The notes under the pieces are model-generated. The model did not search any database. It was given only the letters and a program-made list of their open reading frames with translations, and was not told the origin of the DNA. A stretch of DNA of 64,000 nt, taken from NCBI GenBank assembly GCA_028821475.1, contig JAPPGB010000047.1, positions 1,136-65,135 of the forward strand. Direction: 5' to 3'. Source of the stretch: Spirochaetaceae bacterium. GTDB taxonomy: Bacteria > Spirochaetota > Spirochaetia > SZUA-6 > Bin103. A program made the translations under genes and the position numbers. Positions 5,101-53,858 of this stretch are shown in pieces (positions within the stretch are counted from its first letter, which is position 1; the number at the start of each line of letters is the position of its first letter).

Positions 5101-5987
5101 GCGCCGCGCAGTATCCCAACAGACGGGTTCTGATCGTCGACGACGAGCCGGACATCCACGACGACTTCACCGAGATGCTGTCCACCTCGTACCTGCCGCC
5201 GACCGCCGGCGGCACCGCGGAGCACGGCGTGCAACGGGCGCCGTTTCCGCCCACGTTCGAGTTGCTGCACGCCACCAGCGGCGAGCAGGCCTGCGACATC
5301 ATCCTGAACGCCAGGAGGTGGAGTCAGCCCATTGCCGTGGCGTACGTCGACATCAGGATGCCGGCGGGGATCGACGGCCCCGAGACGATCCGGCGGGTAC
5401 GCACGATGGATCGCGACGTCGAAGTCGTGATGATGACCGCGTACACCGACAAGACGCTTGCCGAGATCATCCAGGACATGGAACTGCTGCACAAGCTGCT
5501 GTACATCAGGAAGCCGTTCGTGCACGAGGAGATTCAGCAGATTACCGTGGCCCTGGTCGGCAAGTGGAACCTGGAGCAGGACCTGGCGGAGAAGCAGCGG
5601 CAGCTCGCCGGAAGCCAGCGCCGCCTGGAGGCCGTGCTCAACGCCACCCGTGACGCCATGGCGATGCGGGATCGCACGGGACGGCTGATGTACGCCAACA
5701 AGGCGTACCTGGCACTGATGGATATGACCCTCGACGAGTTGAAGAACCTCACGCCGGACGAGCTGGCGGCGCGAACCAGGGAACGCTTCAGCGAGCCGCG
5801 GCCGGGCGAGGTGGAGGGCGGGTTCGCGCTCCGCGGCCTCCGGCTGACCACCGCCGCCGGCGCCGGCGACCGCCAACCGGACCAGCGGCTGTACTACCGC
5901 ACCGCCACCGAGGTGCGTGACGGTGCCGAAGTGATCGGCGAGCTGGAAGTGTTCCGGGACGCGTCGCAGGAGATCGAGTCCGAGTAG
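5097..5987 (+). CDS. Response regulator: receiver with inserted loop plus C-terminal PAS-like module
   Basis: GTG at 5097 overlaps the kinase stop (GTGA). The receiver reads RVLIVDDEPD...VDIRMPAGIDG...MMTAY...IRKPF and is followed by a coiled coil and a PAS-like region. The N-terminal about 230 aa are paralogous to the N-terminus of the sigma-54 activator at 13144-15063. Confidence 0.7.
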   Translation: MSAAQYPNRRVLIVDDEPDIHDDFTEMLSTSYLPPTAGGTAEHGVQRAPFPPTFELLHATSGEQACDIILNARRWSQPIAVAYVDIRMPAGIDGPETIRRVRTMDRDVEVVMMTAYTDKTLAEIIQDMELLHKLLYIRKPFVHEEIQQITVALVGKWNLEQDLAEKQRQLAGSQRRLEAVLNATRDAMAMRDRTGRLMYANKAYLALMDMTLDELKNLTPDELAARTRERFSEPRPGEVEGGFALRGLRLTTAAGAGDRQPDQRLYYRTATEVRDGAEVIGELEVFRDASQEIESE

Positions 5988-8186: not shown

Positions 8187-8359
8187 ACGACCGCCGACCA
8201 TGCAAACCACTGTAATCGATCGCGGGGAAGAATCCAACACGCACCGGCAGGCACCAGGCAGGCACCACGGCACCACGAGCACGCCGACGTGCCCGGCCAA
8301 CGCCGGACGAGCGCACGCCGCTGGTGCCCGGTGCAAAAAGTCGCAGGAGGGGTTGACGT

Positions 8360-8402
8360 ATCACTATGGCTGATATTACCCATCTATATCAGTATGAGTG
8401 AT
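8360..8402. promoter_or_regulatory. Nested AT-rich palindrome (ATCACT..TGATAT..N9..ATATCA..AGTGAT): candidate operator in the divergent intergenic region
   Basis: Outer inverted repeat ATCACT (8360-8365) / AGTGAT (8397-8402); inner TGATAT (8371-8376) / ATATCA (8386-8391). TTGACG lies at 8353-8358. The palindrome overlaps the start codon of the giant gene and is markedly AT-rich in a 70% GC genome. Confidence 0.45.
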
Positions 8403-13143: not shown

Positions 13144-15063
13144 TCACTGCATCACGCCGTGCTTCTTCAACTTTCGGTACAGGGTGGCACGGCTTATGCC
13201 CAACGCTTCCGCCGCCTGCTTCACGTTGTGGCCCGCCGCCTGCAGCGCGTGCGACAGCGCCAGCCGCTCCGCCTCCTCGAGCGCCATGGCGGCGCCCGGC
13301 ACGGCGGCGCCCGGCGCCGCACGCACGTGACCGCCGCCGACAGCGGCGATCGGCGACAGCGGCGGCGGCAGGCTGCCGGCCTGCAGCACCTCGGTCTGCT
13401 CCATCCGCACGGCACGCCCCATGGCGTCCTCCAACTCGCGCACGTTGCCCGGCCAGTCGTACTGCAGCAGCAGACGCATCGCCGAGTAGGAGATGCCGGT
13501 GATCGACTTGCCGGCGCGCGCCGCGTGCCGCTCCAGGAGGTGGCGCGCGAGCACCGGCACGTCCTCCTTCCGCTCGCGCAGCGGCGGGATCACGATCGGG
13601 AACGCGGCCAGGCGGTACAGCAGGTCTTCGCGGAACTCGCCCGCCATGACCGCCCGCTCAAGGTCCTTGCTGGTCGCCGTGATCACCCGGACGTCGACAC
13701 GGATCAAGGCGTCGCCGCCGACCCGCCGGATGGTGCGCTCCAGCAATACCCGCAACAGCTCGCGCTGTACGGTGTACGGCACCGCCTCGATCCGGTCGAG
13801 CAGTACCGTGCCGCCGTCGGCACGCTCGAACGCGCCGACGCGCTGCGCGGTCGCTCCCGCCGGGGTGCCGCGCTCACCCCCGAACAGCTCGCTCTCGATG
13901 AACGCCTCCGGGGTGGCACCGCAGTCCACGACCACGAACGGTCCCTCTTTGCGCAGACTGTTGCGATGAAAAGACCGGGACACCAGCTCCGTTCCGGTAC
14001 CGGGCTCGCCACGCACCAGGACCGTGACGTCGGCCTCGGCCGCCTGCTGCATCAGCGCGTACACCTGCCGCATGCGCGGGCTCGCGCCCGCCATGCCGGC
14101 GAACGAGTGGCCGGTCTCCGGGGTGCCGCGCAGGTGCAACACGTCGGCCTTCCTCCGGTCGGCCTCGATCTCCAGGGCTACGTCCCGGTACACCTCGAGC
14201 CGGCCGATCTCCTCGCCGGCGCCATCGTGCACCGGCACCGAGGAGCGATGGAACAGCCGCTGCTTCGGCACCGGTCCGGGGCCGGTGTCGGCAGCATCCG
14301 CCACGTCGCTGCTGTCGATCAGGAAGCGGGCCTCCACGTCGCTCGGGTCCGGCTCCCGGAGGCGCTCGTCGACGAGTGCCGTGAGCACGTCCGGCGCTAT
14401 CTGTTGCATCTCGGCGTCCCCCAGTCCCAGGATCCTCTTGTAGGCGCGATTGGCGAATACCCGGCGTCCGGCGCCGTCGAGCAGGGCGATGGCGTCGCCG
14501 GTGGCGTCGAGCAGCGCTTCCAGGCGGCGATAGCGGCCGACGAGCTCGCGCTGTTCTTCCGCCAGGTCCCGCTCGGCGTTCCACTTGCCGACCAGGGACA
14601 GGGTGGTCTGCTGGATCTCCTCGTGCACGAACGGCTTTCTGATGTAGAGCAGCTTGTGCAGCGCATCCAGGTCGCGGACGATCTCCGGCAGCGACCGGTC
14701 GGAGTAGGCAGTCATCACCACGATTTCGACGTCGCGATCGATCTTGCGCACGCGGCGGATTGTCTCTACCCCGTCGATGCCGGGCGGCATGCGAACGTCG
14801 ATGTAGGCCACGGCGATGGGACGGTTCGCTTCCTTGCTCCCGCTGACGATCGAGCACGCTTGCTCCCCAGTGTTCGCGTGCAGCAGTTCCAGCTTGGGCA
14901 GGAACGGCGCCTCCGCTTCCATGTCCGCGTTCGTGTCTGCCACCACGTCGAAGTCCGGCGTGACCGACGCGGGCTGCAACATCTCCGCGAAGTCCTCGTG
15001 GATCGTGTCCTGATCGTCGACGATCAGGACGCGGGTGTTATAGTGCGGCAACCCCGGCGTCAT
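13144..15063 (-). CDS. Sigma-54-dependent Fis-family transcriptional activator (receiver-PAS-AAA+-HTH)
   Basis: ATG at 15063 is preceded by AAGGAGG. The receiver is RVLIVDDQD...IDVRMPPGIDG. The AAA+ sigma-54 interaction domain has GEPGTGTE and a GAFERADGGTVLLD-type motif. HTH_8 lies at the C-terminus. Confidence 0.8.
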   Translation of the reverse strand: MTPGLPHYNTRVLIVDDQDTIHEDFAEMLQPASVTPDFDVVADTNADMEAEAPFLPKLELLHANTGEQACSIVSGSKEANRPIAVAYIDVRMPPGIDGVETIRRVRKIDRDVEIVVMTAYSDRSLPEIVRDLDALHKLLYIRKPFVHEEIQQTTLSLVGKWNAERDLAEEQRELVGRYRRLEALLDATGDAIALLDGAGRRVFANRAYKRILGLGDAEMQQIAPDVLTALVDERLREPDPSDVEARFLIDSSDVADAADTGPGPVPKQRLFHRSSVPVHDGAGEEIGRLEVYRDVALEIEADRRKADVLHLRGTPETGHSFAGMAGASPRMRQVYALMQQAAEADVTVLVRGEPGTGTELVSRSFHRNSLRKEGPFVVVDCGATPEAFIESELFGGERGTPAGATAQRVGAFERADGGTVLLDRIEAVPYTVQRELLRVLLERTIRRVGGDALIRVDVRVITATSKDLERAVMAGEFREDLLYRLAAFPIVIPPLRERKEDVPVLARHLLERHAARAGKSITGISYSAMRLLLQYDWPGNVRELEDAMGRAVRMEQTEVLQAGSLPPPLSPIAAVGGGHVRAAPGAAVPGAAMALEEAERLALSHALQAAGHNVKQAAEALGISRATLYRKLKKHGVMQ

Positions 15064-35782: not shown

Positions 35783-35920
35783 GCCCGGCCGCGACACGAT
35801 CCATGCGTACCCTCGCCAGGAACCGATGCAGTTCGTTGGACTCGGCGGGGTCGAGCGGGCGCGCCAACACCTCGTCTCGAACTTGCTGCGGCACGACGAC
35901 ATCGCCTCCCAGGACGCGGT
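35764..35920 (-). pseudogene. Internal fragment of a DUF3368 PIN-domain gene (paralog of 50259-50750)
   Basis: Encodes RVLGGDVVVPQQVRDEVLARPLDPAESNELHRFLARVRMDRV, about 80% identical to residues 25-66 of the intact copy. It lacks both ends and abuts the dppC 3' end at the junction ...caggacgcggt|cagacgctgccgc. Confidence 0.5.
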
Positions 35921-36792
35921 CAGACGCTGCCGCGCAGGCGGGGGTCGAGCAGGTCGCGCAGCGCGTCGCCGAACATGTTCAGACTGAACACGGTGATCGT
36001 CAGGCAAAGTCCCGGCCAGGCGGCCAGCCACGGCGCCCGCTCCATGTACTCACGTCCTTCCCGGCTGAGCAAGCCTCCCCAGCTCGGAACGGTGGGCGGC
36101 AGTCCAAACCCGAGGAAGCTCAGAGACGCCTCGGATATCATCACCCCGCCGATATTGATGCTGAACACGATGATTGCGACAGGCATGATATTGGGCAGGA
36201 CATGGCGCACGAACGCTCGCCACTTCGAGGCGCCAAGCGCCTCCGCGGCCTGAAAATAGAGATTCTCCTTGATGCCGACGACCGCGCCTCGCACCACCCG
36301 CGAGCCGCCGATGCCGCCGGCTATGCCCAGGACGACTATTATCTGCGTTACGCCGCGCCCGACCAGCGACATTATCGTCAACAGGATCAACAATCCCGGG
36401 AACGCCATCCAGGCATCGACGAATCTCTGCACGGCCAGGTCGAACTTGCCGCCGAGGAATCCGGACGTGCCCCCGATCAGGAGCGCCACCACGACATTGA
36501 TACTGGTGGCCGCCAGACCGACCGCTATCGACAGCCGGGCTCCGTAGATGACCCGGCTCAACAAGTCGCGCCCCAACTGGTCGGTGCCCAGCGGATGCCG
36601 GGCCGATGAGCCCTGCAGTCTGTCCCTGAGGTGCACTTCAAGGAAGCCGTAAGGGGCCAGAACATCGGCGAATACAGCCACGAGAATCAATAGCAATACG
36701 ACAATACCGCAACCGACACCGAGTGGCTGTTCCCTGACCATCCTGGCAACGAAATCAGCCAGCGCGGTACGCCTCCTGGTCGCTTCACGCAT
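35920..36792 (-). CDS. ABC transporter permease (DppC/OppC-like)
   Basis: Binding-protein-dependent permease fold with the EAAxxxGA region and the C-terminal MFGDALRDLLDPRLRGSV. Start overlaps the dppB stop (ATGCGTGA). Confidence 0.85.
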   Translation of the reverse strand: MREATRRRTALADFVARMVREQPLGVGCGIVVLLLILVAVFADVLAPYGFLEVHLRDRLQGSSARHPLGTDQLGRDLLSRVIYGARLSIAVGLAATSINVVVALLIGGTSGFLGGKFDLAVQRFVDAWMAFPGLLILLTIMSLVGRGVTQIIVVLGIAGGIGGSRVVRGAVVGIKENLYFQAAEALGASKWRAFVRHVLPNIMPVAIIVFSINIGGVMISEASLSFLGFGLPPTVPSWGGLLSREGREYMERAPWLAAWPGLCLTITVFSLNMFGDALRDLLDPRLRGSV

Positions 36793-37744
36793 AGCGGACC
36801 CGGGGGTCGAAAAGAGGATAAACCAGGTCTATCATCAAATTGAAGCACACCACCGCGGTTGCGAAAAACAGGTTCACCCCGGAGACCACCGGGTAGTCTC
36901 TTTCTTCGAGCGCCAACACCATGAGGCGACCCAATCCGGGCAGGTTGAAGATGTTCTCCATGATAACGGAGCCACCAACCAGGATAGGCAACTGCAGGCC
37001 GATCAGGGTAACCACCGGGATCAGGGCGTTCTTGATTGCGTGTCTCATGATGACGAATCGCTCCTTGAGGCCCTTGGACCACGCCGTCCTGATATAGTCC
37101 TGCCTCAGCACCTCCAGCATCATGGTACGCGTCAGCCGCATGGTGCCGGCAGCAAGAGCCGTGCCCAGAATCAGGCTCGGAACGATGAACACCGCGAGAT
37201 TGCCCAGCGGGTCTTGGGTGAAAGAGACCAGCCGCATCGGCGGCGACCAGCCCCACCAGAGTGCCGGGTAAATAATCACCATCAGGGCCAGCCAGAAGTT
37301 GGGCGTTGCCAGGCCGATGACGGCGGCGGCGCGCCCCACGTAGTCGGCGGCCGAATTACGGCGCACCGCCGAGTAGATGCCGACCGGCACGGCGATCACC
37401 AACCCGATCAGGATTGCCAGAACACCCAGCTCGATGGTCACCGGAAGTCTAGCCGATATTCTCTGCTCTATCGAAACATCGGTTCCCCACAGTGAATTTC
37501 CAAGCGTGCCGCGCAACAGGATACCTCCGATCCAGCGTCCATACTGCACGTGGAACGGCACGTCCAATCCAAGCTGTTTCTCGAGAGCTTCACGATCCGG
37601 CACAAACCCCATCATTTCCAGTTGAACCGTCATTGCGTCTATTGCATCGCCGGGGATGAAGCGCACCGAGAGAAACGTCACGACGGTGACGATGAACAGG
37701 GTGGGAATCATCAGCAGGAGCCGGCGGATGATGTAGGCTCTCAT
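36785..37744 (-). CDS. ABC transporter permease (DppB/OppB-like)
   Basis: 319 aa. The N-terminal MRAYIIRRLLLMIPTLFIVTVVTF is typical of DppB. Confidence 0.85.
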   Translation of the reverse strand: MRAYIIRRLLLMIPTLFIVTVVTFLSVRFIPGDAIDAMTVQLEMMGFVPDREALEKQLGLDVPFHVQYGRWIGGILLRGTLGNSLWGTDVSIEQRISARLPVTIELGVLAILIGLVIAVPVGIYSAVRRNSAADYVGRAAAVIGLATPNFWLALMVIIYPALWWGWSPPMRLVSFTQDPLGNLAVFIVPSLILGTALAAGTMRLTRTMMLEVLRQDYIRTAWSKGLKERFVIMRHAIKNALIPVVTLIGLQLPILVGGSVIMENIFNLPGLGRLMVLALEERDYPVVSGVNLFFATAVVCFNLMIDLVYPLFDPRVRYA

Positions 37745-37827
37745 GTCACATCACGTCAGTTCCGACGGGTAGAGGAAAACCGGGGGGCCTGAGCCCCCCA
37801 GTCTCAGCGGGCACTAGTTTACCAGTA

Positions 37828-39636: not shown

Positions 39637-39861
39637 ACTGATCTCTCCCACATGTGAGATTGTGAGAGTGCTTCCGGTGCGAGTTGCCGTTCCCTGCCCA
39701 CTCTCGCGCCCGCAACGCAGGCGGCCAAAGCCGAGACGGCAATCTCAGGTGGTCACGCGCGCGGCATGAGTGTGACTCACTCTAGCAGCTAGGCCGCGCG
39801 CATGCTGCGATTAGTGTTGCAGACGCGCGACTACCCGTCAACTCCGTCAGTTGTGCGGCTA

Positions 39862-39901
39862 TTGACCGAAGACCACATATGACACTATATGCGGTGTCAT
39901 G
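39862..39901 (+). promoter_or_regulatory. hicAB promoter/operator copy 1: TTGACC-N17-CTATAT with inverted repeat ATGACAC-N8-GTGTCAT overlapping -10 and start codon
   Basis: Read directly. An identical arrangement is present at 44974-45013 upstream of the second hicAB copy. Confidence 0.45.
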
Positions 39902-40306
39902 CCGGGGGTTGGACCGGGTGTCAACGCTGCCATCGTCTGGCTCAACGCGTATGCGTACAACATCACGGTGCGGGAGTGCGTCTTCGAAGGCGAACCACTG
40001 TTCGAGGCTCGCGTCAAGGAGCTGCCGGACGTTCGGGAATATGCGGAGTCCGCACAGGAAGCCTACGATCTGGCCATCGACACCATCGAGACGGCAGCCG
40101 GGATGTTTGCCGAGACCGGCCGGCCGTTCCCGCCCCCGACCAGCCCGCAGGATGAATTCAGCGGCCGCGTTACGCTGCGCATTCCCAGAAGCCTGCATCG
40201 TGCGCTGGCGAGCGCGGCCGAAGACGAGGGCGTGAGCCTCAACCAACACCTCGTCACGGCCCTGACCCGCCTACACGCGAGTGCCGGCGCCAAGCGGCAC
40301 GGATAG
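39899..40306 (+). CDS. hicB: HicB-family antitoxin fused in frame to the first 12 codons of hicA (hicA deleted)
   Basis: MPGVGPGVNAAI (hicA N-terminus) is joined to LNAYAYNITV...RIPRSLHRALASAAEDEGVSLNQHLVTAL (HicB C-terminal RHH-like). Apart from the deleted hicA segment and the altered junction (IVW here, M+MKR there), the HicB-coding part is identical to 45303-45680. Confidence 0.7.
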   Translation: MPGVGPGVNAAIVWLNAYAYNITVRECVFEGEPLFEARVKELPDVREYAESAQEAYDLAIDTIETAAGMFAETGRPFPPPTSPQDEFSGRVTLRIPRSLHRALASAAEDEGVSLNQHLVTALTRLHASAGAKRHG

Positions 40307-40406
40307 GGAGCCGGCACGCCGGATTGGCCGCGGCGCCGTCTCCCGTATCGCCCACGCCGGAGACGCCGCTTGACTTTGGCGCTGACCCAAGGCACACCAT
40401 CCACCC

Positions 40407-42906: not shown

Positions 42907-43120
42907 CAAGCCGAGTCAGCTCCGCGATATCCGCCAGGTCTTGGGGCCTGCCCGCCGCGCGCTTCAGCCGCAGCAGGACTTCCAGCCGCACGATCCGTAT
43001 CGGCACTCCGGGCGACACCTCCTCGACCAGCGCCGCCGCGTACTCGGCAGCGAAGTCGAACGGTTCCGCGGCGAACAGGTCGACCGACGTCTCGCGGTGC
43101 CGGTCGCTGTGGAAGCCCAG
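42907..43120 (-). pseudogene. Start-less 3' gene fragment (...IVRLEVLLRLKRAAGRPQDLADIAELTRL)
   Basis: This reading frame opens immediately after the TAG of the PIN fragment, with no start codon. The C-terminal motif KRAAGRPQDLADIAEL is reminiscent of nucleotidyltransferase-like Abi/TA proteins, but the family is not identified. Confidence 0.3.
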
Positions 43121-43318
43121 CTACGACCGGTCGATTTCGCGAATCACCGCGGCATACAGCTCCACCCCGATGCGGAAGCCATGGGAGCGCACGAGGTCGT
43201 CCACGAGCCGGCGCACCTCGGCCCGGTCGACCAGTCCCCGCCGCAACGCGAGCAGCAATACGCCGAGCGTGCCGAGCGGTCGAATGCCTTCGACTGCGGC
43301 GACCGGTGAGCGGATCCC
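43121..43318 (-). pseudogene. 3' fragment of a DUF3368 PIN-domain gene
   Basis: The last about 65 codons (VEGIRPLGTLGVLLLALRRGLVDRAEVRRLVDDLVRSHGFRIGVELYAAVIREIDRS) are about 92% identical to the C-terminus of 50259-50750. Upstream sequence is unrelated GC-rich filler. Confidence 0.55.
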
Positions 43319-44820: not shown

Positions 44821-44973
44821 CACACGGCGCCGTACTCGGCACCTGTAGCCCAGCGCCAGGCGGTGAACGCGGGCCCACCGGGTAGCGGATGTGCGGGCGA
44901 AACAGGCGCCTGAGCGTACCAGGGCTCTGGAGTCGGCAATGCGCGAGATGCGCGAAAATGCCCGATGCGGCCA

Positions 44974-45013
44974 TTGACCGAAGACCACGTATGACACTAT
45001 ATACGGTGTCATG
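44974..45013 (+). promoter_or_regulatory. hicAB promoter/operator copy 2 (TTGACC...ATGACAC-N8-GTGTCAT)
   Basis: ATGACAC at 44991-44997 and GTGTCAT at 45006-45012 overlap the ATG at 45011. About 95% identical to 39862-39901. Confidence 0.45.
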
Positions 45014-45306
45014 CCGGGGGTTGGGCCGGGTGTCAACGCTGCCATCGCCTATCTGTCTACCGGCGCGCGTATTCGATGCGACGCGATGATCCGGTTGCTG
45101 ACCGGTCTCGGCTTTTCCGTCCGCGATGGCCGAAAGCAGGGCCACAAGGTCATCACCCACCGGGGCCTGGATGCCTTTACGTCGGCCGCCTTTCTTGCGG
45201 CCATGGCAAGAACCCGCAGGTCAAGCCGGTGTACGTGGCGAGTATCCGCTCGTTGCTCGCGTCCCATGCGGATGACTTGCAGAAACTGCCGGGAGGTCAG
45301 GAGTGA
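45011..45306 (+). pseudogene. hicA: HicA-family toxin gene requiring a frameshift
   Basis: Frame A reads MIRLLTGLGFSVRDGRKQGHKVITH (the HicA fold through the SHH-type motif). The C-terminal part (...GHGKNPQVKPVYVASIRSLLASH...QE*) is in a second frame ending in TGA, which overlaps the hicB start. Confidence 0.5.
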
Positions 45307-45680
45307 TGAAGAGGCTCAACGCGTATGCGTACAACATCACGGTGCGGGAGTGCGTGTTCGAAGGCGAACCACTGTTCGAGGCTCGCGTCAAGGAGCTGCC
45401 GGACGTTCGGGAATATGCGGAGTCCGCACAGGAAGCCTACGATCTGGCCATCGACACCATCGAGACGGCAGCCGGGATGTTTGCCGAGACCGGCCGGCCG
45501 TTCCCGCCCCCGACCAGCCCGCAGGATGAATTCAGCGGCCGCGTTACGCTGCGCATTCCCAGAAGCCTGCATCGTGCGCTGGCGAGCGCGGCCGAAGACG
45601 AGGGCGTGAGCCTCAACCAACACCTCGTCACGGCCCTGACCCGCCTACACGCGAGTGCGGGCGCCAAGCGGCACGGATAG
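45303..45680 (+). CDS. hicB: HicB-family antitoxin
   Basis: Identical protein to the hicB part of 39899-40306. C-terminal RIPRSLHRALASAAEDEGVSLNQHLVTALTR. Confidence 0.75.
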   Translation: MMKRLNAYAYNITVRECVFEGEPLFEARVKELPDVREYAESAQEAYDLAIDTIETAAGMFAETGRPFPPPTSPQDEFSGRVTLRIPRSLHRALASAAEDEGVSLNQHLVTALTRLHASAGAKRHG

Positions 45681-45735
45681 GGAGCCGGCACGCCGGATTG
45701 GCCGCGATTGGTCATTGTATCAACTCTGCGGGGTA

Positions 45736-46689
45736 TCAACTCTGCGGGGCCGCGGCGTCGGCGCCGTAGCGGCCGAGGCGGCCGCGCAGGCGGGGGTCGA
45801 GCAGGTCGCGCACCGCGTCGCCGAACATGTTGAGGCTGTAGACGACCACGGTCAGGCACAGTCCCGGCCACAGCGCCAGGTGCGGCGCCATCTCCATGTA
45901 CTGCCGACCCTCGCGGCTCAGCATGCCGCCCCAGCTCGGTATGTCCGGCGGCAGTCCGAAGCCCAGGAAGCTCAGCGCCGCCTCCGACATGATCACCCCG
46001 CCGACGTTGATGCTGAAGATGATGATGATCGGCGCCGCGATGTTGGGCAGCACGTGGCGCAGCAGCGAGCGCCGGCGCGAGCTGCCGATCGCCTGCGCCG
46101 CCTGGAAGTAGACGTTCTCCTTGACCCCCAGCACCGCGCCGCGCACCACCCGCGAGGCGGGGATGCCGCCCGACACCCCGAGCACGATGATGATCTGCAG
46201 CATGCCACGGCCGGCAATCGACATGATGGTGAGCAGCAGCAGCAGCCCCGGGAACGCCATCCAGGCGTCGACGAAGCGCTGCGTCACCAGGTCCAGCCGG
46301 CCGCCGATGAAGCCGGTGGTACCGCCGATCAGCACCGCCACCACGACGGTGAGGGCGGTGGCGGCCAGCCCCACCGACAGCGACAGCCGCGCCCCGTGGA
46401 TGAGGCGGCTCAGCAGGTCGCGCCCGACGTGGTCGGTGCCCAGCAGGTACGCGGCCGAGGGGGCCTGCAGGCGGTCGCGCAGGTGGATCTCCTCGAAGCG
46501 GTAGGGCGCCAGCGAATCGGCGAAGATGCTCACCAGCACCAGGAGCAGGATGACGATGCCGCCGGCGGTGCCCAACGGCTGTTCACGGAGCAGCCGGGCG
46601 AAGAAACGCCGCGCTCCCGCGTGCCCGGGCGCAGCCGCCCCGGTGGCCGGCTCGGCGCCGGCCGGAGTGATCTGTGATACGTCACCCAC
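45736..46689 (-). CDS. DppC/OppC-like ABC permease, paralog copy 2
   Basis: 317 aa, about 75% identical to 35920-36792. GTG start with an AGGAGAG RBS. The C-terminus is altered (DPRLRGRLGRYGADAAAPQS), with a 14-nt tandem duplication (TATCAACTCTGCGGGG x2) just 3' of it. Confidence 0.75.
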   Translation of the reverse strand: MGDVSQITPAGAEPATGAAAPGHAGARRFFARLLREQPLGTAGGIVILLLVLVSIFADSLAPYRFEEIHLRDRLQAPSAAYLLGTDHVGRDLLSRLIHGARLSLSVGLAATALTVVVAVLIGGTTGFIGGRLDLVTQRFVDAWMAFPGLLLLLTIMSIAGRGMLQIIIVLGVSGGIPASRVVRGAVLGVKENVYFQAAQAIGSSRRRSLLRHVLPNIAAPIIIIFSINVGGVIMSEAALSFLGFGLPPDIPSWGGMLSREGRQYMEMAPHLALWPGLCLTVVVYSLNMFGDAVRDLLDPRLRGRLGRYGADAAAPQS

Positions 46690-46710: not shown

Positions 46711-46800
46711 CCTGGTCCGAAGAAGCCGGCCGGCAGCCGATGCTTCGGCATCGGTATTCATCGTCTTCGATGTCACGGAGTGACCGTACAGACTCATTCG
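46711..46800 (-). promoter_or_regulatory. Conserved ~90-nt two-hairpin leader element, copy A (5' of the dppC paralog)
   Basis: In transcript sense: GGUCAC-ucc-GUGAC hairpin, then gacgaugaaua, then CCGAUGC-cgaa-GCAUCGG hairpin, then GCCGGCCGGC, then the RBS. About 85% identical to 61432-61520. Confidence 0.4.
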
Positions 46801-46949
46801 TAGCGGATCCGCGGGTCCAGCGACGCGTACAGCAGGTCGGTCAGCAGGTTGACCGCCGCCACCACCGTGGCGAAGAACAGGTTCACCGCCGACACCACCG
46901 GGTAGTCGCGCTCGTTGAGCGCGTCCAGCATCAGCCCTCCGAGCCCCGG
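46794..46949 (-). pseudogene. 3' fragment of a DppB-like permease gene
   Basis: Encodes only ...ENIFNLPGLGGLMLDALNERDYPVVSAVNLFFATVVAAVNLLTDLLYASLDPRIRYE*. Sequence upstream is an out-of-frame dppC 3' end. Confidence 0.6.
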
Positions 46950-46965
46950 CAGGTTGAAGATGTTC

Positions 46966-47688
46966 TCAGACCTGCCTGGCGGCATCGGCATCGAGGCGTC
47001 CGCCGCCGCCGCGCAGCCGCGGGTCGAGCAGGTCGCGCACCGCGTCGCCGAACATGTTCGAACAGTACACGACAATCGTCAGGCACAGGCCCGGCCAGAC
47101 CGCCAGCATGGGCGCCACCTCCATGAACTTGCGCCCTTCCCGGCTGAGCAGACCTCCCCAGCTCGGCACGCCGATCGGCAGCCCGAACCCCAGGAAGCTC
47201 AAGCTGGCCTCACTCATGATCACCCCGCCGATGCTGATGCTGAATATGATGATCATGACCGGCATGATATTGGGCACGACGTGGCGCACCAGTGTCGCGG
47301 CGCCGCCGCTGCCGATCGCGGGGGCGGCCAGAAAGTAGTCATTCTCCTTGATGCCGATGACCGCCGCCCTGACTACTCTCGAGGTGCCGATTCCTCCCGC
47401 TATCCCCAGGACCAGTATTATCTGCAACACACCGCGTCCCGCTATCGACATCACGGTCAACAACATCAGCAGCCCCGGGAAAGCCATCCAGGCATCGACG
47501 AATCTCTGCACAGCCAGGTCCAGTCTCCCACCAAGGAATCCTGAAATGCCGCCGATCAGGGCAGCGACCACGACCGTGAGAGCGCTCGCCGCCAGGCCGA
47601 CAACTATGGAAAGACGAGCCCCTACGATGAGGCGGCTCAAGAAGTCCCGCCCTGCAGCCGGTCTGCCAGGTGCATTTCGGAGAGACAA
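46966..47688 (-). pseudogene. DppC-like permease paralog copy 3, N-terminally truncated with altered C-terminus
   Basis: Lacks the first about 50 codons including TM1. The C-terminus reads DPRLRGGGGRLDADAARQV instead of DPRLRGSV. Confidence 0.6.
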
Positions 47689-47960: not shown

Positions 47961-48311
47961 CGGCGCCGGTCATCCTCGACGAGGAGCAGTAAGCGCCCGA
48001 CCTGCTGCCCTATATCAAGGAGAAGATCGACGCCAACCGCGCCACGAGGTAAAGCTGTCCGCGACGCGGCGCCCGGCCATGGCCGCCGCCATCAAGACGT
48101 TGCACGGCGATTTGTGCCGCGCGGCACTGCCTGGATACGTGGTTCATCACGGCGCAGCGCCGCCACGGCATCGATTCGCCCGGTTGGCCACAGATCGAGC
48201 TGCGTCGGCTGCGGGACGAGCGCCAGCTCCTCGCCGAAGACGCTGCTGCGGCTGCTGCGACCCGGCGGTTGGCGCTGATGGGTTGGATTGATATACGTTA
48301 CGTTGGTCGAC

Positions 48312-49481
48312 ATGAAGACAACGGAGCAGCGCTTGTTCACTCCCGGCGACGGCGCAACGCCGCCAGCCCTCACCGGACGCGAGCGGGAGGAGGCGGTGCT
48401 GACGCGGTGCCTGGGCGACCTGCTCAGTGGCCGGGCACCACCGCACAACGTTGTCCTGACCGGGCCGCGCGGTACCGGCAAGACGGTGCTGCTCAACTGG
48501 TTCGAGCGCACCTGCCGCGACCACGTATCGGACGTCGACGTGCTGAAACTGACCCCGGACGATATTCCGACCCGGGACGCGCTGATCGAGGTTCTGGCGC
48601 CGACGCCCAAGTTAGCGAAGCTGCTGCCCCGCAAGCTGGGCGTGGCAACGGTGGGCTCGGTCGAGTGGGCGCCGCCCGCCGGGGGCATGCGCAACCTGCG
48701 GGATGAGTTGACCGCCCGGTGCCGCAGGAAGCCGCTGGCGACGCTGGTCGATGAGGCGCACACACTCGACCTGGTGGTGGGAAGAGCGCTGCTCAACGCC
48801 AGTCAAAAGGTGCGTGCCGACGCGCCGTTTCTGCTGGTGCTGGCGGGCACGCCAGGGTTGGCTGCGCATCTCGGCGCCATGAATGCGTCCTTCTGGAGCC
48901 GCTTGGGAGAGGGGCGCCTGGGCATCGGCCTGCTGAGCGACGCGGCCGCCCGCGCCGCCCTGGTCGAGCCGCTGGCCGCCCACGACGAGGGCATCGACGC
49001 CGACGCCCTCGCCACGGTGGTCGACGACAGCCAGTGCTATCCCTACTTTATCCAACTCTGGGGCGAGGCCCTGTGGGAGCGGCATCTGACTACCGGCGCG
49101 ACCCAACTCACCATCGCCCACGCAACTGCCGCGCGGCCCGGCGTGACCGCCAGGATCACCGACTACTACGAGGATCGATACCTGGAGTTGGATCGATCCG
49201 GCTGGCTGGCCGTTGCCGAGCGCGTGGCCGACCGCTTTCACTCCACGCCGACGCTGACCTACGAGCAGTTGAAGTCCGCGGTCGCCGCCGGTCTCGCTGC
49301 GAACGCGGACCCGCAGCAGGTGCATGCAGCCCTGACCGCCCTGCAACGCCTGGGTTTCGTCTGGCGCCCGCCCGGCCAGCTTCCGCCGGTCCGCTACGAG
49401 CCCGGCATTCCCTCGCTCATGGCCTACGTACTCGACCATGCCGCACCGACGCATGGAGAAGCACTTCCCGGAACCAGATAG
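48312..49481 (+). CDS. AAA+ ATPase domain protein (AAA_16/archaeal-ATPase-like)
   Basis: Walker A LTGPRGTGKTVLL, preceded by a (F)TGREREEAVL motif. Start at the ATG at 48312 (ORF track opens at a TTG at 48288). Its 5' end is repeated at 50192 and 52935. Confidence 0.7.
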   Translation: MKTTEQRLFTPGDGATPPALTGREREEAVLTRCLGDLLSGRAPPHNVVLTGPRGTGKTVLLNWFERTCRDHVSDVDVLKLTPDDIPTRDALIEVLAPTPKLAKLLPRKLGVATVGSVEWAPPAGGMRNLRDELTARCRRKPLATLVDEAHTLDLVVGRALLNASQKVRADAPFLLVLAGTPGLAAHLGAMNASFWSRLGEGRLGIGLLSDAAARAALVEPLAAHDEGIDADALATVVDDSQCYPYFIQLWGEALWERHLTTGATQLTIAHATAARPGVTARITDYYEDRYLELDRSGWLAVAERVADRFHSTPTLTYEQLKSAVAAGLAANADPQQVHAALTALQRLGFVWRPPGQLPPVRYEPGIPSLMAYVLDHAAPTHGEALPGTR

Positions 49482-49629
49482 CTCTGCACTTCGGCCGCGT
49501 TCGGATCAGATCGCGAACCAGGGTCTGACGTCGATGCCGTGGCGGCGCTGGTGGCCGGCGCTGATCGGCGCGCCACTCACCCCGGGACGGCGGCGGCGTG
49601 CGCCGTAATCACGGAGCGACGGTGCCGAC

Positions 49630-49878
49630 TCACTCGTAGTGCGTCCACATTCGGAGCACCTTGACGACGCGCTCGCGTTCAAGGACCTGGTACACGAGGC
49701 GGTGCTGGATGTTGATCCGACGCGAACACGCTCCGGTCAGATCGCCAATCAGTTTCTCGAACGGTGGCGGGCTGCGCCAGGGATCCTCACGGAGCACCTG
49801 AAGGAGGCGCTCCACGTTCGTACGGAGCCCGGACGCAGCCACCTTCCGTGCGTCCTTTCGGGCTTGCCTGGTGAACAC
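49630..49878 (-). CDS. yoeB: YoeB/Txe family toxin
   Basis: ...LIGDLTGACSRRINIQHRLVYQVLERERVVKVLRMWTHYE. Confidence 0.8.
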   Translation of the reverse strand: MFTRQARKDARKVAASGLRTNVERLLQVLREDPWRSPPPFEKLIGDLTGACSRRINIQHRLVYQVLERERVVKVLRMWTHYE

Positions 49879-49888
49879 CAGTCGGTAG

Positions 49889-50131
49889 TCACCACCCAGG
49901 CTCTGCGTCGCACTCCTCCACGGGAGTTTCGAGTCCCTTCCGTATCGAATCGGTCATGCCGGGGATGGCGGACAGGTACAGCGTCTCCTGTATTGCATTC
50001 CAGTCTTCTTCGCTCACCAGGACCGCCGACCGCTCTTTTCCCGTTATCGTGACCGGAACATGCGATTCATTCACTTCATCGATGAGCCGGTACAGGTTCT
50101 TCCGTGCATTGGTGACATTCAAGGTCGCCAT
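49889..50131 (-). CDS. yefM: YefM/Phd family antitoxin
   Basis: MATLNVTNARKNLYRLIDEVNESHVPVTITGKERSAVLVSEEDWNAIQETLYL. Confidence 0.8.
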   Translation of the reverse strand: MATLNVTNARKNLYRLIDEVNESHVPVTITGKERSAVLVSEEDWNAIQETLYLSAIPGMTDSIRKGLETPVEECDAEPGW

Positions 50132-50191
50132 GGGCTGCCTCCCGTACGTCATACCGTACGCTACGGACTGCTCAGGGTCAAGTCGTCACAC

Positions 50192-50250
50192 TGTCGATAT
50201 GAAGACGACGGAGCACGCCTGTTCACTCCCGGCGACGGCGCCGCGCCGTG
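50192..50250 (+). pseudogene. 5' fragment of the AAA ATPase gene (copy 2, about 17 codons)
   Basis: GTCGATATGAAGACGACGGAGCACGCCTGTTCACTCCCGGCGACGGCGCC matches the start of 48312-49481 and then runs into the 3' end of the opposite-strand PIN gene. Confidence 0.5.
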
Positions 50251-50258
50251 CGCGCCAG

Positions 50259-50750
50259 CTACGGCCTGTCGATCTCGCGCATCACCGCCGCATACAGTTC
50301 TACCCCGATGCGAAAGCCATGGGAGCGCACGAGGTCGTCGACCAGCCGGCGCACCTCGGCCCGGTCGACCAGTCTCCGCCGCAGCGCCAGCAGCAATACG
50401 CCAACGGTGCCGAGCGGTCGAATTCCTTCCACCGTGGCCAGGCGGCGAACGGTCCGGTCGTCGGCGAGCAGCAGGTCCGCTTCGAGTCGGACGGCCAGCG
50501 TCATGGCCGCATTGTCGGCGCGGCTCATGCCGACGGCAAAGCCGCGCGGGCTGTCGACGCGTTCCATGCGTACCGCCGCCAGAAACCGATGCAGTTCATC
50601 GGACTCGGCCCGGTCGAGCGGACCCGCCAACACCTCGTCTCGAACCTGTTGCGGCACCGCGACATCGTCTCCCAGGACGCGGTGAATCAGGTCAAGGCGC
50701 CGGATCTTGCCCAGAAATATCAGCGGACTTGCATCGGCGACGACGGTCAA
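50259..50750 (-). CDS. DUF3368 PIN-domain protein (toxin)
   Basis: 163 aa, VVADASPLIFLGKIRRLDLI...LLLADDRTVRRLA...GIRPLGTVGVLL. Confidence 0.75.
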   Translation of the reverse strand: MTVVADASPLIFLGKIRRLDLIHRVLGDDVAVPQQVRDEVLAGPLDRAESDELHRFLAAVRMERVDSPRGFAVGMSRADNAAMTLAVRLEADLLLADDRTVRRLATVEGIRPLGTVGVLLLALRRRLVDRAEVRRLVDDLVRSHGFRIGVELYAAVMREIDRP

Positions 50751-51073
50751 AGCGGCTGCAGGTCCGCCGCCAAGTCCTCCGGACCGTAGTTCAACACCAA
50801 GTCCTGATCGCGCAAACGGAGAATCAGGTCACGGAGGCTCAGGCCGGCAATCTCGGCGGCACGCGAGAGGGTTACTTCCCCGCGCCGGTACTCGTGGCAA
50901 GCACGTTCGAGCAGGAGCGCGCTGGTACCTCGTCGAACCGCCCACCGCAACAGGGTGGAGCGGTCGACACCCATAGCCTGCGCGGTGCTCTCCAGGCGAG
51001 ACACCTCGGACTCCGGCAGTCGCAGCGATACGGTTACCGTTTGCACGTATACAACTCCGCACCATGTATACAC
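50747..51073 (-). CDS. UPF0175 family protein (antitoxin partner of DUF3368)
   Basis: ...ACHEYRRGEVTLSRAAEIAGLSLRDLILRLRDQDLVLNYGPEDLAADL matches UPF0175 (YRrGelSlgkAAelAGms..eF). Start uncertain. Confidence 0.7.
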   Translation of the reverse strand: MYTWCGVVYVQTVTVSLRLPESEVSRLESTAQAMGVDRSTLLRWAVRRGTSALLLERACHEYRRGEVTLSRAAEIAGLSLRDLILRLRDQDLVLNYGPEDLAADLQPL

Positions 51074-51134
51074 GGTGCGGTGCCCACCGTCAACTACGAT
51101 GTCGATGTCCGGGTTGGTCAGCTTGAAGCGGCGG

Positions 51135-52076
51135 TCAGACGCTGCCGCGCAGGCGGGGGTCGAGCAGGTCGCGCAGCGCGTCGCCGAACATGTTGATGCT
51201 GTACACGACGATGGTCAGGCACAGGCCCGGCCAGATCGCCAGCCGCGGCGCCATCTCCATGTACTGGCGGCCCTCCCGGCTCAGCATCCCGCCCCAGCTC
51301 GGCACCCCGGGCGGCAGCCCGAACCCCAGGAAGCTCAACGACGCCTCCGCCACGATGATGCCGCCGATGGTGATCGAGAAGATCACGATGATCGGCGCCA
51401 TGATGTTGGGCAGCACGTGCCGCAGCAGGGTCGCGAAGGTGCGCTCGCCAATGGCCTGCGCGGCCTGGAAGTAGTCGTTCTCCTTGATGCCGATCACCGC
51501 GCCGCGCACCACCCGCGAGTTGGTGATGCCGGACGATACCCCCAGAATCACTATGATCTGCAGCAGCCCCTGCCCGGCGATCGACATGATGGTGAGCAAC
51601 AGCAGCAGGCCCGGGAACGACATCCAGGCGTCCACGAACCGCTGCACCAGGAGGTCCAGCTTGCCACCGATGAACCCCGCGGTGCCGCCGATCAGCACCG
51701 CGACCACCACGTGCAACGTGGTCGCCGCCAGGCCGACGAACAGCGAGATGCGCGCCCCGTAGATCAGGCGGCTCAGAAAGTCGCGCCCGAGCTGGTCGGT
51801 GCCGAGCGGATACTCGCCCGACGGGCCTTGCAGCCGGTCGGCCAGCGTCATCTGGTTGGGATCGTGCCCTGCCAGGTACGGTGCGAAGATGCTGACCAGG
51901 ACCAGCGCCAGCAGCACCACGCCCCCGAACGCACCCAGGGGCTGCTCCTTGATGAATCGTCGCGGCAACCCGCCCAGGAACAACCGGCGCTCCACTCGCT
52001 TTGTCGCCGAACCGGCGGCTGCCCGTTCGGCTCCTCGTTCGTCCGGCGCTCGCCCGGACGGCACTCGCCCGGCCAT
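51135..52076 (-). CDS. DppC/OppC-like ABC permease, paralog copy 4
   Basis: Full length from MAGRVPSG... Its ATG overlaps the stop of the truncated dppB upstream. Its 3' 65 bp are 100% identical to the 3' end of copy 1 (35915-35975). Confidence 0.75.
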   Translation of the reverse strand: MAGRVPSGRAPDERGAERAAAGSATKRVERRLFLGGLPRRFIKEQPLGAFGGVVLLALVLVSIFAPYLAGHDPNQMTLADRLQGPSGEYPLGTDQLGRDFLSRLIYGARISLFVGLAATTLHVVVAVLIGGTAGFIGGKLDLLVQRFVDAWMSFPGLLLLLTIMSIAGQGLLQIIVILGVSSGITNSRVVRGAVIGIKENDYFQAAQAIGERTFATLLRHVLPNIMAPIIVIFSITIGGIIVAEASLSFLGFGLPPGVPSWGGMLSREGRQYMEMAPRLAIWPGLCLTIVVYSINMFGDALRDLLDPRLRGSV

Positions 52077-52912
52077 CAGCGGTACCCGACCCGCGGATCC
52101 AGAACGGCGTAGATCAGGTCGACCACCAGGTTGATTGCCATCACCGAGGCCGCGAACGTCAAGTTTACGCCGGAGACCACCGGGTAGTCGCGGTCGTTGA
52201 GCGCGTCCAGCATGAGGCGGCCGAGCCCCGGCAGACTGAAGATGCTCTCCATGATCACCGAGCCGCCGATCAGGATCGGCATCTGCAGGCCGATCAGCGT
52301 CACCACCGGGATCAGGGCGTTCTTGATCGCGTGTCTGACGATCACGACCTGCTCCTGCAGACCCTTGGACCAGGCGGTCCTGACGTAGTCCTGCCGGAGT
52401 ACCTCCAGCATCATGGTGCGCGTCATCCGCATCGTGGCCGCGGCCAGGTAGGTGCCCAGAATCAGGCTCGGCACGATGAACACGCCGATGCTGCCCAGCG
52501 GATCGTCGCGGAACGGCACCAGCGTCAACGGTGGCGACCACGCCCACCAGATGGCAGGGAAGGTCAGAATCAGGGTCGCCAGCCAGAAGTTGGGGGTGGC
52601 CAGGCCGATGATGGCGACCGACCGACCGACGTAGTCGGCGGCCGTATTGCGGCGCATCGCGGAGTAGATGCCGACCGGCAGCCCGATCAGCAACCCGATC
52701 ACGATCGCCATCACTCCCAGTTGGACGGTTGCCGGTAACCTGGCGAGTATCTTCTCCTCGACCCGCCAGTCGCCCAGGAGGGAATTGCCCAGCGTGCCGT
52801 GCAGGAAGATATCCCCCAGCCAGCGTCCATACTGCACGTAGATCGGCCGGTCCAGTCCCAACATCCGCTCCAGCTTTTCACGGTCTATATCGGGATCCAT
52901 GAAACTCGCCAT
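52076..52912 (-). pseudogene. DppB-like permease paralog, N-terminally truncated (lacks first ~43 codons)
   Basis: Begins MASFMDPDIDREKLERMLGLDRPIYVQYGRWLG, corresponding to residue about 43 onward of the intact DppB. TM1 is missing. The 5' end abuts AAA-ATPase fragment copy 3. Confidence 0.6.
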
Positions 52913-52934
52913 TTGCGCCGCCAACGCCTGGTCG

Positions 52935-53152
52935 ACATGAAGACAACAGAGCAGCGCCTGTTCACTCCCGGCGACGGCGCCACGCCGCCAGCCCTCACCG
53001 GACGCGAGCGGGAGGAGGCGGTGCTGACGCGGTGCCTGGGCGAACTGCTCGGCGGCCGGGCGCCACCGCACAACGTCGTCCTGACCGGGCCGCGCGGTAC
53101 CGGCAAGACGGTGCTGCTCAACTGGTCGAGCGCGCCTGCCGCGATTACGTAG
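52935..53152 (+). pseudogene. 5' fragment of the AAA ATPase gene (copy 3, about 70 codons, 1-nt deletion then divergence)
   Basis: About 93% identical to 48309-48520 up to AACTGGT-CGAGCGC (a single T is missing relative to copy 1). A stop follows after ...LLNWSSAPAAIT*. Confidence 0.6.
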
Positions 53153-53182
53153 CGGACTGGTTCGTGGTATTCTGATTGCAAC

Positions 53183-53704
53183 GTGTCGTCTCCCAACCAG
53201 CAGCATCGGGGTCATGGATACCCCGAACTGAAGCCACTTCTGGATCTGTACCTGGGCAGGGTGCGCGACGGACTCGGGGAACGCGTGTCGGCGGTAGCCC
53301 TCTATGGCTCGGTGGCACGCGGACAGGCGCAGGCGGGGAGCGACGTGGATCTGTTCGTGGTCCATCGCGGCCCGCGTGCTGCCGTGTTCGAGGTATTCCT
53401 GCAGGTCGCGCTGCAGTTGCGCGACCATCCGCTCGTTCGTGAGTTGCAGGCGCGCAAGGTTCCGACCGAGCCGTACGCGGTGTTCCGTACCGAGACGGAG
53501 CTGGCCGATACCCCCTGGCTGCTGCTGGACATCACTGACCACGGCATCATTCTGTTCGATCCGCGCCACGTGCTGGCGCGCAAGCTGGCGAGCCTGCGGC
53601 TGCGGCTGCGCGAACTTGGCTCGCGCCGCGTGGAGCTGGCCGATGGCTCGTGGTATTGGGACCTGAAGCCCGATATGCGTCCCGGCGAGGTCATCGCCCT
53701 GTAG
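53183..53704 (+). CDS. Minimal nucleotidyltransferase (MNT) domain protein, paralog of 42117-42656
   Basis: LYGSVARGQAQAGSDVDLFVV, about 70% identical to the other MNT. Start uncertain (GTG at 53183). Confidence 0.7.
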   Translation: MSSPNQQHRGHGYPELKPLLDLYLGRVRDGLGERVSAVALYGSVARGQAQAGSDVDLFVVHRGPRAAVFEVFLQVALQLRDHPLVRELQARKVPTEPYAVFRTETELADTPWLLLDITDHGIILFDPRHVLARKLASLRLRLRELGSRRVELADGSWYWDLKPDMRPGEVIAL

Positions 53705-53720
53705 CGACGCAGCGGTTGCC

Positions 53721-53858
53721 ATGGACAACGGGGAGCGCGGCCGCAGGCTGATGGCGATGGCCGCCGAGTACTTGCAGGATATGGACGCCGCCGCCGGCCG
53801 CGGCTGCTGCGACTACGGCGGTGGCGAAAGAATCACCGAGCCGACACGGCCGATGTAG
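53721..53858 (+). pseudogene. Truncated HEPN gene remnant (45 codons)
   Basis: MDNGERGRRLMAMAAEYLQDMDAAAG... resembles the HEPN N-terminus (MSNGERGRKLLAASREHLAEMEGAL...) and then terminates. It is overlapped by the opposite-strand vapC. Confidence 0.5.

Follow-up and report, generated by a model that had tools for sequence, protein, structure and literature searches.

The ATPase Gene and the Copies of Its 5' End

We analyzed a 64,000-nucleotide stretch of DNA (the window; positions 1,136 to 65,135 of contig JAPPGB010000047.1, Spirochaetaceae bacterium), a short-read metagenome scaffold of a high-GC Spirochaetia whose nearest named relatives are Spirochaetaceae and Spirochaetia metagenome-assembled genomes (MAGs). 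A hypervariable island at ~35.8-55.2 kb of the window holds type II toxin-antitoxin (TA) modules, paralogous dpp/opp permease operons, and several paralogues of a gene encoding an AAA-type ATPase. An earlier note had reported that the 5' end of one such ATPase gene occurs three times, at the edges of different TA or dpp blocks, and had proposed that the gene start is a recombination-prone site or that the ATPase belongs to an element that moves the blocks. Our analysis upheld the position of the fragments on rearrangement junctions and gave support to neither proposed cause. The two fragmentary copies, referred to as relics 2 and 3, are very probably decayed leftovers of redundant ATPase paralogues that were cut by short-homology deletions, i.e., scars of rearrangement and not its cause. 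Coordinates are those of the window, prefixed with W where confusion is possible, and L002-L032 designate stretches from relatives that were compared with it; two of them, L028 (labelled 12x) and L026 (labelled 19x), are contigs assembled from long reads. The ATPase features are as follows:

48268..48311, plus strand: native leader of copy 1, GTTGGCGCTGATGGGTTGGATTGATATACGTTACGTTGGTCGAC
48312..49481, plus strand: intact ATPase gene (copy 1), 389 aa, P-loop NTPase of AAA_16/AAA_22 type
48304..48533, plus strand: part of copy 1 found again at other positions, -10 to +222 of the gene
50193..50248, plus strand: ATPase relic 2, 56 nt, -6 to +50, 89-91% identity to the other copies
52929..53169, plus strand: ATPase relic 3, -10 to ~+221 (or +233)
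52937-53152, plus strand: open reading frame (ORF) of relic 3, 71 aa (gene call), with a 1-nt deletion at 53126
53159..53169, no strand: microhomology junction GGTTCGTGGTA, ATPase body deleted and relic fused to the MNT upstream region
52927..52929, no strand: scar of a ~2.54-kb deletion, this contig only, dppB ...GCCAACGC / C / TGGTCGACATG

Self-BLASTN and global alignments bore out the threefold presence of the ATPase 5' end, with all three copies on the plus strand and with the coordinates of the earlier note agreeing to within 1-2 nt. Copy 1 (48304-48533) and copy 3 (52929-53157) were 94.3% identical over 230 columns (E 2e-97), their alignment containing a single 1-nt gap, AACTGG-TCGAG. 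Copy 1 (48306-48362) and copy 2 (50193-50248) were 89.5% identical over 57 columns (E 3e-13), and copy 2 (50193-50248) and copy 3 (52931-52987) were 91.2% identical over 57 columns (E 3e-14). The degenerate 50-mer of the earlier note matched with 0 mismatches at 48306-48355 and 52931-52980 (0 expected; 100 shuffles), and it misses the middle copy solely because of a 1-nt deletion there. Over the first 230 nt, identity to the full ATPase copies compared was 89-95% for all of them, which singles out none as the source of the relics, and a tblastn search with the ATPase detected no further relic anywhere in the window. The leader of copy 1 is also kept ahead of the ATPase copies in L002, L004, L009, L010, L015, and L017/18, and homology between the window and L004 begins at 48268.

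Gene calls and Pfam matched the neighbours that the earlier note had described at each copy. Copy 1 lies between a DUF433/DUF5615 remnant (left) and YoeB-Phd (right), copy 2 between YoeB-Phd (left) and DUF3368-UPF0175 (right), and copy 3 between a 5'-truncated dppB (left) and MNT with a truncated HEPN, HEPN' (right):

From ~47678: DUF433/DUF5615 remnant
49630-49842, minus strand: YoeB toxin (Pfam)
49889-50131, minus strand: Phd/YefM antitoxin (Pfam)
50259-50750, minus strand: DUF3368 (PIN-like) toxin (Pfam)
50747-51046, minus strand: UPF0175 antitoxin (Pfam)
51135-52076, minus strand: dppC/OppC permease (gene call)
52076 to 52912/52927, minus strand: dppB permease, 5'-truncated (gene call)
53183-53704, plus strand: MNT nucleotidyltransferase (Pfam NTP_transf_2)
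53721 to ~53793, plus strand: truncated HEPN, cut short at 53793/53794, from where the window again matches L004
Right of HEPN': PIN-RHH, PIN-Phd, NUDIX, and onward

The Joints of Relic 3

Relic 3 consists of 229 nt at 52929-53157 with 94% identity to copy 1, while the match to the ATPase of L016 runs to 53169; the MNT gene starts 25 nt past the 229-nt segment. The undeleted arrangement is present in L016, where a full ATPase gene (93.5% nucleotide identity) is followed by a 29-nt DUF3368 scrap and then by MNT-HEPN (88% to W53159-53799), the MNT being complete and the HEPN matched as far as W53799. L016 reads GTTGACGTGGTA in its ATPase and GGTTCGTGGTA upstream of its MNT, and the joint of the window reads TGGTTCGTGGTA. 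The crossover lies inside GTT..CGTGGTA, which occurs at both parental sites of L016 (ATPase codon ~75 and the MNT upstream region) and amounts to 7-11 nt of microhomology. On the evidence of these parental sites, a deletion of ~1 kb in a former full-length copy at this place (A3) joined ATPase codon ~75 to the MNT upstream region. The exact 71-aa frameshifted ORF that resulted is found on 5 contigs.

The left edge of copy 3 is the exact end of dppB homology, W52927, in comparison with L004/L005. The segment 51135-52927 is 94.5-95.9% identical to L004 and L024 and 99.5% identical to L028, and dppB is 108 nt longer in these relatives. Past the point corresponding to W52927, L028 still has the 5' end of dppB that the window lacks, and after it come an intact dppA, 579 bp, the ATPase leader, and relic 3 itself (100% to W52929-53208). 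L028 2823 to 281 is missing from the window and both sides match at 99.5-100%, i.e., a single 2543-bp deletion, which took out dppA together with the 5' end of dppB, the intergenic region, and the ATPase leader as far as -10. The 4-nt sequence AACG stands at both endpoints, which are visible in L024, and the scar can also be rendered as ...GCCAACGC / C / TGGTCGAC. This contig alone has thus undergone a further deletion of ~2.54 kb that ran from dppB codon ~36 through dppA to -10 of relic 3. Since the full leader GTGTTGGCGCTGATGGGGTGGTCYGATATACGTAACGTTGGTCGAC stands ahead of relic 3 in four sister contigs (L022, L024, L025, and L028), the -10 edge is the product of a late, contig-specific deletion and not an original block edge. 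The left boundary that copy 3 shares with the other copies is secondary, a late coincidence.

The Joints of Relic 2

Relic 2 carries a 1-nt deletion that causes a frameshift at codon 8, and it sits between two separately recurring TA cassettes. On its left, the YoeB-Phd cassette, promoter region included, occupies 49626-50185 and is 92.9% identical to L018 4512-5070, where it stands in another context; its end at 50185 is set by that comparison. On its right, the DUF3368 cassette starts at 50255, as judged against 43117 and L015. Filler bases flank the relic on both sides (7 nt, TCACACT, left; 6-7 nt, TGCGCG, right), the right-hand filler lying between the relic and position 50259, where the DUF3368 (PIN-like) gene of the minus strand has its stop codon. 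The right joint reads ...GCGCCG / TGCGCG / CCAGCTACGG, and CCAGC is present at both parental sites. In L015, an intact ATPase (86.6%) is followed by a DUF3368 scrap and then by a converging DUF3368-UPF0175 pair (91% to W50256-50871). By this comparison, a deletion of ~1.1-1.4 kb in a second former copy (A2) may have fused +57 with the DUF3368 cassette at its end, using 4-5 nt of CCAGC microhomology and leaving a 6-nt filler. Thus both fragments mark rearrangement junctions, as the earlier note had it, with the edge of copy 3 at the end of dppB homology and copy 2 between cassettes that recur apart from each other.

Sister Strains and the Fluidity of the Island

Comparison with relatives showed how much of the locus varies. 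L004/L005 carry a 97% identical ATPase followed by 92 nt, dppC-dppB-dppA, and then PIN-RHH. The window differs from them by an extra 1572-bp block (49558-51129) containing YoeB-Phd, relic 2, and DUF3368-UPF0175, and by 52928-53793 (relic 3, MNT, and HEPN'), which replaces the dppB 5' end and dppA. In L017 and L018, modules with the ATPase, an epimerase, and YoeB-Phd occur 13 kb away, between W34820 and W35142. Sister versions of the island (L022, L026, L028, and L029) contain transposases of insertion sequences (IS110, IS21 with a Mu-transposase-like gene and IstB, IS66) and of rve type at differing points, as well as an inserted DruA gene and phage-type integrase. The sister strains with these insertions are 99.5-100% identical to the window, which itself has none of them. 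We regard the relics as scars of this highly fluid island.

Probable Decay of Redundant Paralogues

We propose that three ATPase copies in the same orientation once stood here: A1 with a converging YoeB-Phd, A2 with a converging DUF3368-UPF0175, and A3 with MNT-HEPN. A1 is still intact, while the redundant A2 and A3 would have been whittled down by illegitimate, short-homology deletions. The undeleted arrangements exist in relatives (L016, L015, and L028), the joints carry microhomology (7-11 nt between relic 3 and MNT; 4-5 nt with fillers elsewhere), and each relic bears an inactivating 1-nt deletion and has diverged to 89-94% identity to copy 1. Similar scraps and deletions lie nearby, namely the DUF3368 fragments at 35792-35920 and 43117-43300, dppB and dppC fragments at 46794-47511, HEPN' at 53721-53793, and a hicA deletion at 39938/39939. 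The presence of the ATPase gene in several copies per genome and the scatter of homology limits on either side of it, both described below, also speak for this explanation.

Several observations weigh against this explanation. The left edges of the two relics, -6 and -10, are just 2-4 nt apart, which is improbable for two random endpoints, and 3-4 other copies have their homology limits in the last 25 nt before ATG. Microhomology is only 4-5 nt, with filler bases, at three of the four joints, and the 2.54-kb deletion rests on this one short-read scaffold. Furthermore, none of the relatives showed a progenitor state of the joint on the left of relic 2 (YoeB-Phd promoter, 7-nt filler, -6), and because of this the history of relic 2 is drawn by analogy.

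Is the Gene Start a Recombination-Prone Site?

The clustering of edges raises the alternative that the ~25 nt that immediately precede the ATPase start codon are a genuine hot spot of breakage or recombination that repeatedly sets block edges, in which case the shared left edge would be no coincidence. We consider this unlikely, and it is the strongest of the competing explanations. In its favor, the ~25-nt stretch holds TATAC, tandem ACGTT units (three in L002, two in the others), and a GTCGAC palindrome; besides the relic edges at -6 and -10, limits before ATG fall at -24 in L011, -17 in L016, -16 in L012, and ~-2 to -18 in L003; and a 12-nt tandem duplication, GACATGAAGACA, lies right at the start codon in L017 and L018. 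This duplication is at ~1758-1735 (minus strand) of L017 and at 1893-1916 of L018, and the protein then starts MKTDMKTMEQ.

The remaining evidence points the other way. The edge of copy 3 is secondary, as described above, with the leader retained in four sister contigs. When homology limits around the ATPase coding sequence (CDS) were read across ~16 independent copies, they were scattered from -56 to -2 upstream, a spread of ~55 nt, and from +3 to +55 downstream. Such scattered limits do not fit one site. They lie symmetrically around the CDS, equally tight at the stop codon, which is what selection for the gene combined with fast turnover of its flanks would give. No repeats or inverted repeats occur at the relic edges, and the first 45 codons show no extra synonymous conservation. 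In exact-pattern scans (13 matches in GTDB genomes and 3 stretches in JGI metagenomes), matches were almost only full-length, and 5'-only relics were found in no genome outside the window's strain group. Accordingly, the suggestion that the gene start is recombination-prone was not sustained. If a hot spot were nevertheless at work, the ATPase gene would be a recurrent docking point for turnover of TA/transporter islands in these perhaps sponge-associated Spirochaetia, and the mild clustering of breakpoints just upstream of its start codon could merit later work.

Two related candidates were rejected. A nucleotide-level site within the 5' CDS was dropped since synonymous identity was 0.82/0.79 in the first 30 codons as against ~0.74 gene-wide (codon-aligned, 16 copies), with the first window of that scan biased by the search pattern. 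A retro-copy or transcription-start origin of the left edges was dropped since a promoter scan returned 0 sites in 47.6-53.3 kb and the edge of copy 3 is a deletion when seen beside the sister strains; a TGnTATACG motif at -23 to -15 would place a transcription start near -8.

An Alternative Origin of Relic 2

Relic 2 might also have arisen by Campbell-type homologous integration, or unequal crossing-over, of a segment with the ATPase and YoeB-Phd into a short ATPase stub beside DUF3368, so that its -6 edge would mark where a circular or tandem intermediate closed and would not be the result of a simple deletion of a full A2. The gene order is the reason to weigh this: a full gene with leader, YoeB-Phd, and a leaderless 5' stub, all in one orientation, is exactly what a single crossover in the first 56 nt would give. 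Gene orders among relatives also look circularly permuted, e.g., the DUF5615 fragment precedes the ATPase in the window and follows it in L002. We regard such an event as very unlikely. No circular or tandem intermediate was seen, the fillers at both joints (7 nt and 6 nt) suggest illegitimate joining and not homologous exchange, and homologous recombination works poorly on a target of 56 nt with 90% identity.

The ATPase Family and Mobile-Element Explanations

The copy 1 gene was called on the source scaffold, and a single contig carries the intact protein in the records, ENA ERZ23495471 ROBB21-1_SAMN13943213_METAG-scaffold_951 (66,771 bp), in which window coordinates are raised by 1142. Copy 1 scored above the Pfam gathering thresholds for AAA_16 (40.4 bits, cutoff 32.6) and AAA_22 (36.5 bits, cutoff 27) and below that for AAA_30; the only Pfam families listed for it were AAA_16, AAA_22, AAA_30, DUF815, and ORC-CDC6-like. 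More than 2000 homologues were detected, the best 120 having 67-99% identity and mostly ~375-400 aa. The gene is multi-copy per genome, with 4 clusters on a single 7.1-Mb contig and 2-3 matches in several GTDB genomes. In L010 252-4573, from a different Spirochaetia species, two same-orientation ATPase copies stand 3.1 kb apart, one of them having lost 132 bp internally; the interval contains a dppC scrap and a fragment of MNT, an architecture resembling that of the window. This uncharacterized, highly conserved, multi-copy family could merit later work, since many Spirochaetia MAGs have a member beside dpp operons, MNT-HEPN, or DUF3368-UPF0175.

Searches with the ATPase of NCBIfam, PADLOC, PHROGs, and PDB sequences returned nothing specific. 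The NCBIfam ORC/Cdc6 model TIGR02928 matched the N-terminus weakly (25.2 bits against a cutoff of 181). An AlphaFold2 model built from a 32-sequence alignment had a mean predicted local distance difference test (pLDDT) score of 55, and below 50 in the ATPase domain. Foldseek's best matches to this poor model were archaeal ORC2, RFC, and RuvB, none at E <= 1e-3; the top one, archaeal ORC2 1w5t_A (E 2.3e-3, template-modelling score 0.25), is a weak lead. With TIGR02928 below its cutoff and no confident AAA+/winged-helix fold in the model, assignment to the ORC1/Cdc6 replication initiators was set aside.

The earlier note had suggested that the ATPase might belong to the element that moves the TA and dpp blocks. 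In a more specific form of this idea, it would be the helper NTPase, in the manner of TniB, IstB, or TnsC, of a transposon-like element, with the gene start as an element end. Consistent with such a role are the match to AAA_22, which we take to group with TniB/TnsC-type ATPases, the occurrence of the gene in multiple copies per genome and varied contexts, and a perfect 20-nt inverted repeat, CAGCGCCGCCACGGCATCGA, that brackets copy 1:

48155..48174, plus strand: left arm
49531-49550, minus strand: right arm

The chance expectation for a 20-nt inverted repeat is 0.09, even with 3 mismatches tolerated. The repeat does not extend beyond its arms, both of which would encode QRRHGID. L004, L005, and L024 share its right arm, its left arm is limited to the window's strain group, and neither arm occurs at the other ATPase copies. 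Inspection for inverted repeats, as the earlier note had advised, thus yielded this one pair around copy 1 and none at the relic edges, and terminal inverted repeats were rejected since the pair is unextended and unshared.

A resemblance to transposition helpers was looked for in several ways. Pfam gave no match to TniB (PF05621) or IstB_IS21 (PF01695) at E <= 0.01; hhalign against the IstB of sister strain L022 aligned 89 Walker-region columns only, at 47% probability; PDB profile and fold searches were without TniB, TnsC, MuB, or IstB; and matches in NCBIfam, PADLOC, and PDB were only generic or weakly ORC/Cdc6-like. No transposase adjoins the ATPase in more than 10 contexts (among them the window, L002, L003, L004, L005, L024, L026, and L028), the insertion sequences of sister strains are separate insertions, and no transposase or integrase gene was called in the window across the annotated 12.9-59.5 kb. 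We therefore place membership of the ATPase in a block-moving element close to refuted, with only a minimal chance of being correct.

Site-specific recombination was also rejected in two forms. An integron cassette array was discarded on the lack of a called integrase in 12.9-59.5 kb and on the mixed orientations of the modules; no attC covariance model was run, and the modules end 3-8 nt past their stop codons, too close for an attC of 55-140 nt to fit in. Duplication of a target gene end, as in attL/attR, was discarded because the repeats measure 56 versus 229 nt, deletions joined their right ends to unrelated cassettes, and the blocks lack a recombinase.

No more credible is an error of metagenome assembly, through collapsed repeats or chimeric joins, which might be suspected in a short-read scaffold where relic 2 is about as long as a k-mer but is excluded by the exact relic 3 ORF on 5 contigs, by a 5250-bp stretch spanning relic 2 (W47678-52927) that is collinear and 99.54% identical in long-read L026 and L028, and by Logan contig L032, which matches W49373-50373 at 100% through relic 2 and the joints on either side of it; the copies differ by 6-11% plus indels, so that joining through identical k-mers is impossible, the joints recur in two independent long-read contigs, the Logan contig, an NCBI MAG contig, and a sister-sample contig, and only the 2.54-kb deletion joint is unique to the scaffold, with no misleading repeat there. 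The wrongly collapsed repeats that the earlier note had named as a possible refutation are thereby disposed of.

Other Features of the Island

Many sequences of the island (35.8-55.2 kb) are repeated: dppC is represented by four paralogues and dppB by three copies or fragments, HicB has two loci, and MNT-HEPN occurs a second time as an inverted pair; no tRNA genes were found. The four paralogous dpp/opp operons or fragments (35916-37747, 45736-46689, 46794-47652, and 51130-52927) have 72-83% nucleotide identity, and local gene conversion is suggested by 32 near-identical nt at the 3' end of dppC (35917-35948 = 51132-51163). The DUF3368 scraps at 35792-35920 and 43117-43300 are 88-89% identical to 50255-50683, and one of them abuts the 3' end of another dppC paralogue; scraps of 29 nt and 96 nt flank the ATPase copies in L016 and L015, respectively.

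The two HicB loci (39854-40332 and 44966-45706) are 94-99.5% identical. The second retains 262 bp (45051-45312) that appear, by eye, to be a degenerate hicA toxin gene, and the first has lost exactly this hicA-like stretch (joint 39938/39939), a clean deletion inside a TA module. At 47652-47678, an illegitimate joint fuses an internal dppC fragment (46966-47652, 97.7% to L009) into the interior of a DUF433 antitoxin gene, and the long-read sisters L026 and L028 have the full DUF433 gene at this position. The DUF433/DUF5615 fragment at L002 7473-7754 is 94% identical to W47678-47959; it lies downstream of the ATPase in L002 and upstream in the window. Elsewhere in the window, 5118-5983 and 14159-15039 form an inverted paralogue pair (70%), and tandem-like internal repeats occupy 8580-11699, inside a 1612-aa ORF (8289-13127).

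Comparison with Known Systems

The import of these findings beyond the locus is small: they provide a clean, reconstructed example of redundant paralogues eroded by small deletions in a TA-rich island, and they show that gene order can differ greatly between strains that are 99.5% identical.

Like ORC/Cdc6-type, initiator, and clamp-loader AAA+ proteins, the ATPase combines a P-loop domain with Walker A/B motifs (GPRGTGKT ... LVDEAH) at its N-terminus with a helical domain at its C-terminus. Unlike the ORC/Cdc6-type proteins, it scores far under the family cutoffs (25 versus 181 bits), and its gene is multi-copy and located in TA islands, not at a replication origin. The locus resembles islands bounded by attL/attR repeats in having same-orientation partial copies of one gene end separated by accessory blocks. 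However, the relics do not represent one common core because their lengths differ (56 and 229 nt), the intact gene precedes its 5' relics instead of following them, there is no integrase, and sister strains show that the relic edges of the window come from deletions.

TA loci have been described as mobile cassettes. As in other TA islands, the modules YoeB-Phd, DUF3368-UPF0175, MNT-HEPN, PIN-RHH, HicAB, and DUF433-DUF5615 recur in differing orders among relatives, and module limits are tight, here stop +3 to +8 and ~50 nt of promoter; in contrast to such islands, the repeated element is the accompanying ATPase and not a TA gene, and no mobilization mechanism is visible in the window. The closest likeness is to the pseudogene relics that microhomology-mediated deletions leave in variable islands, with which the locus shares truncated, frameshifted fragments, intact progenitors in relatives, microhomology of 4-11 nt, short fillers, and presence or absence that differs between strains 99.5% identical. 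Apart from the oddity of two independent left edges within 4 nt of each other, nothing essential separates the ATPase relics from that class, and the phenomenon is ordinary genome decay, of an already known kind, in a hypervariable island.

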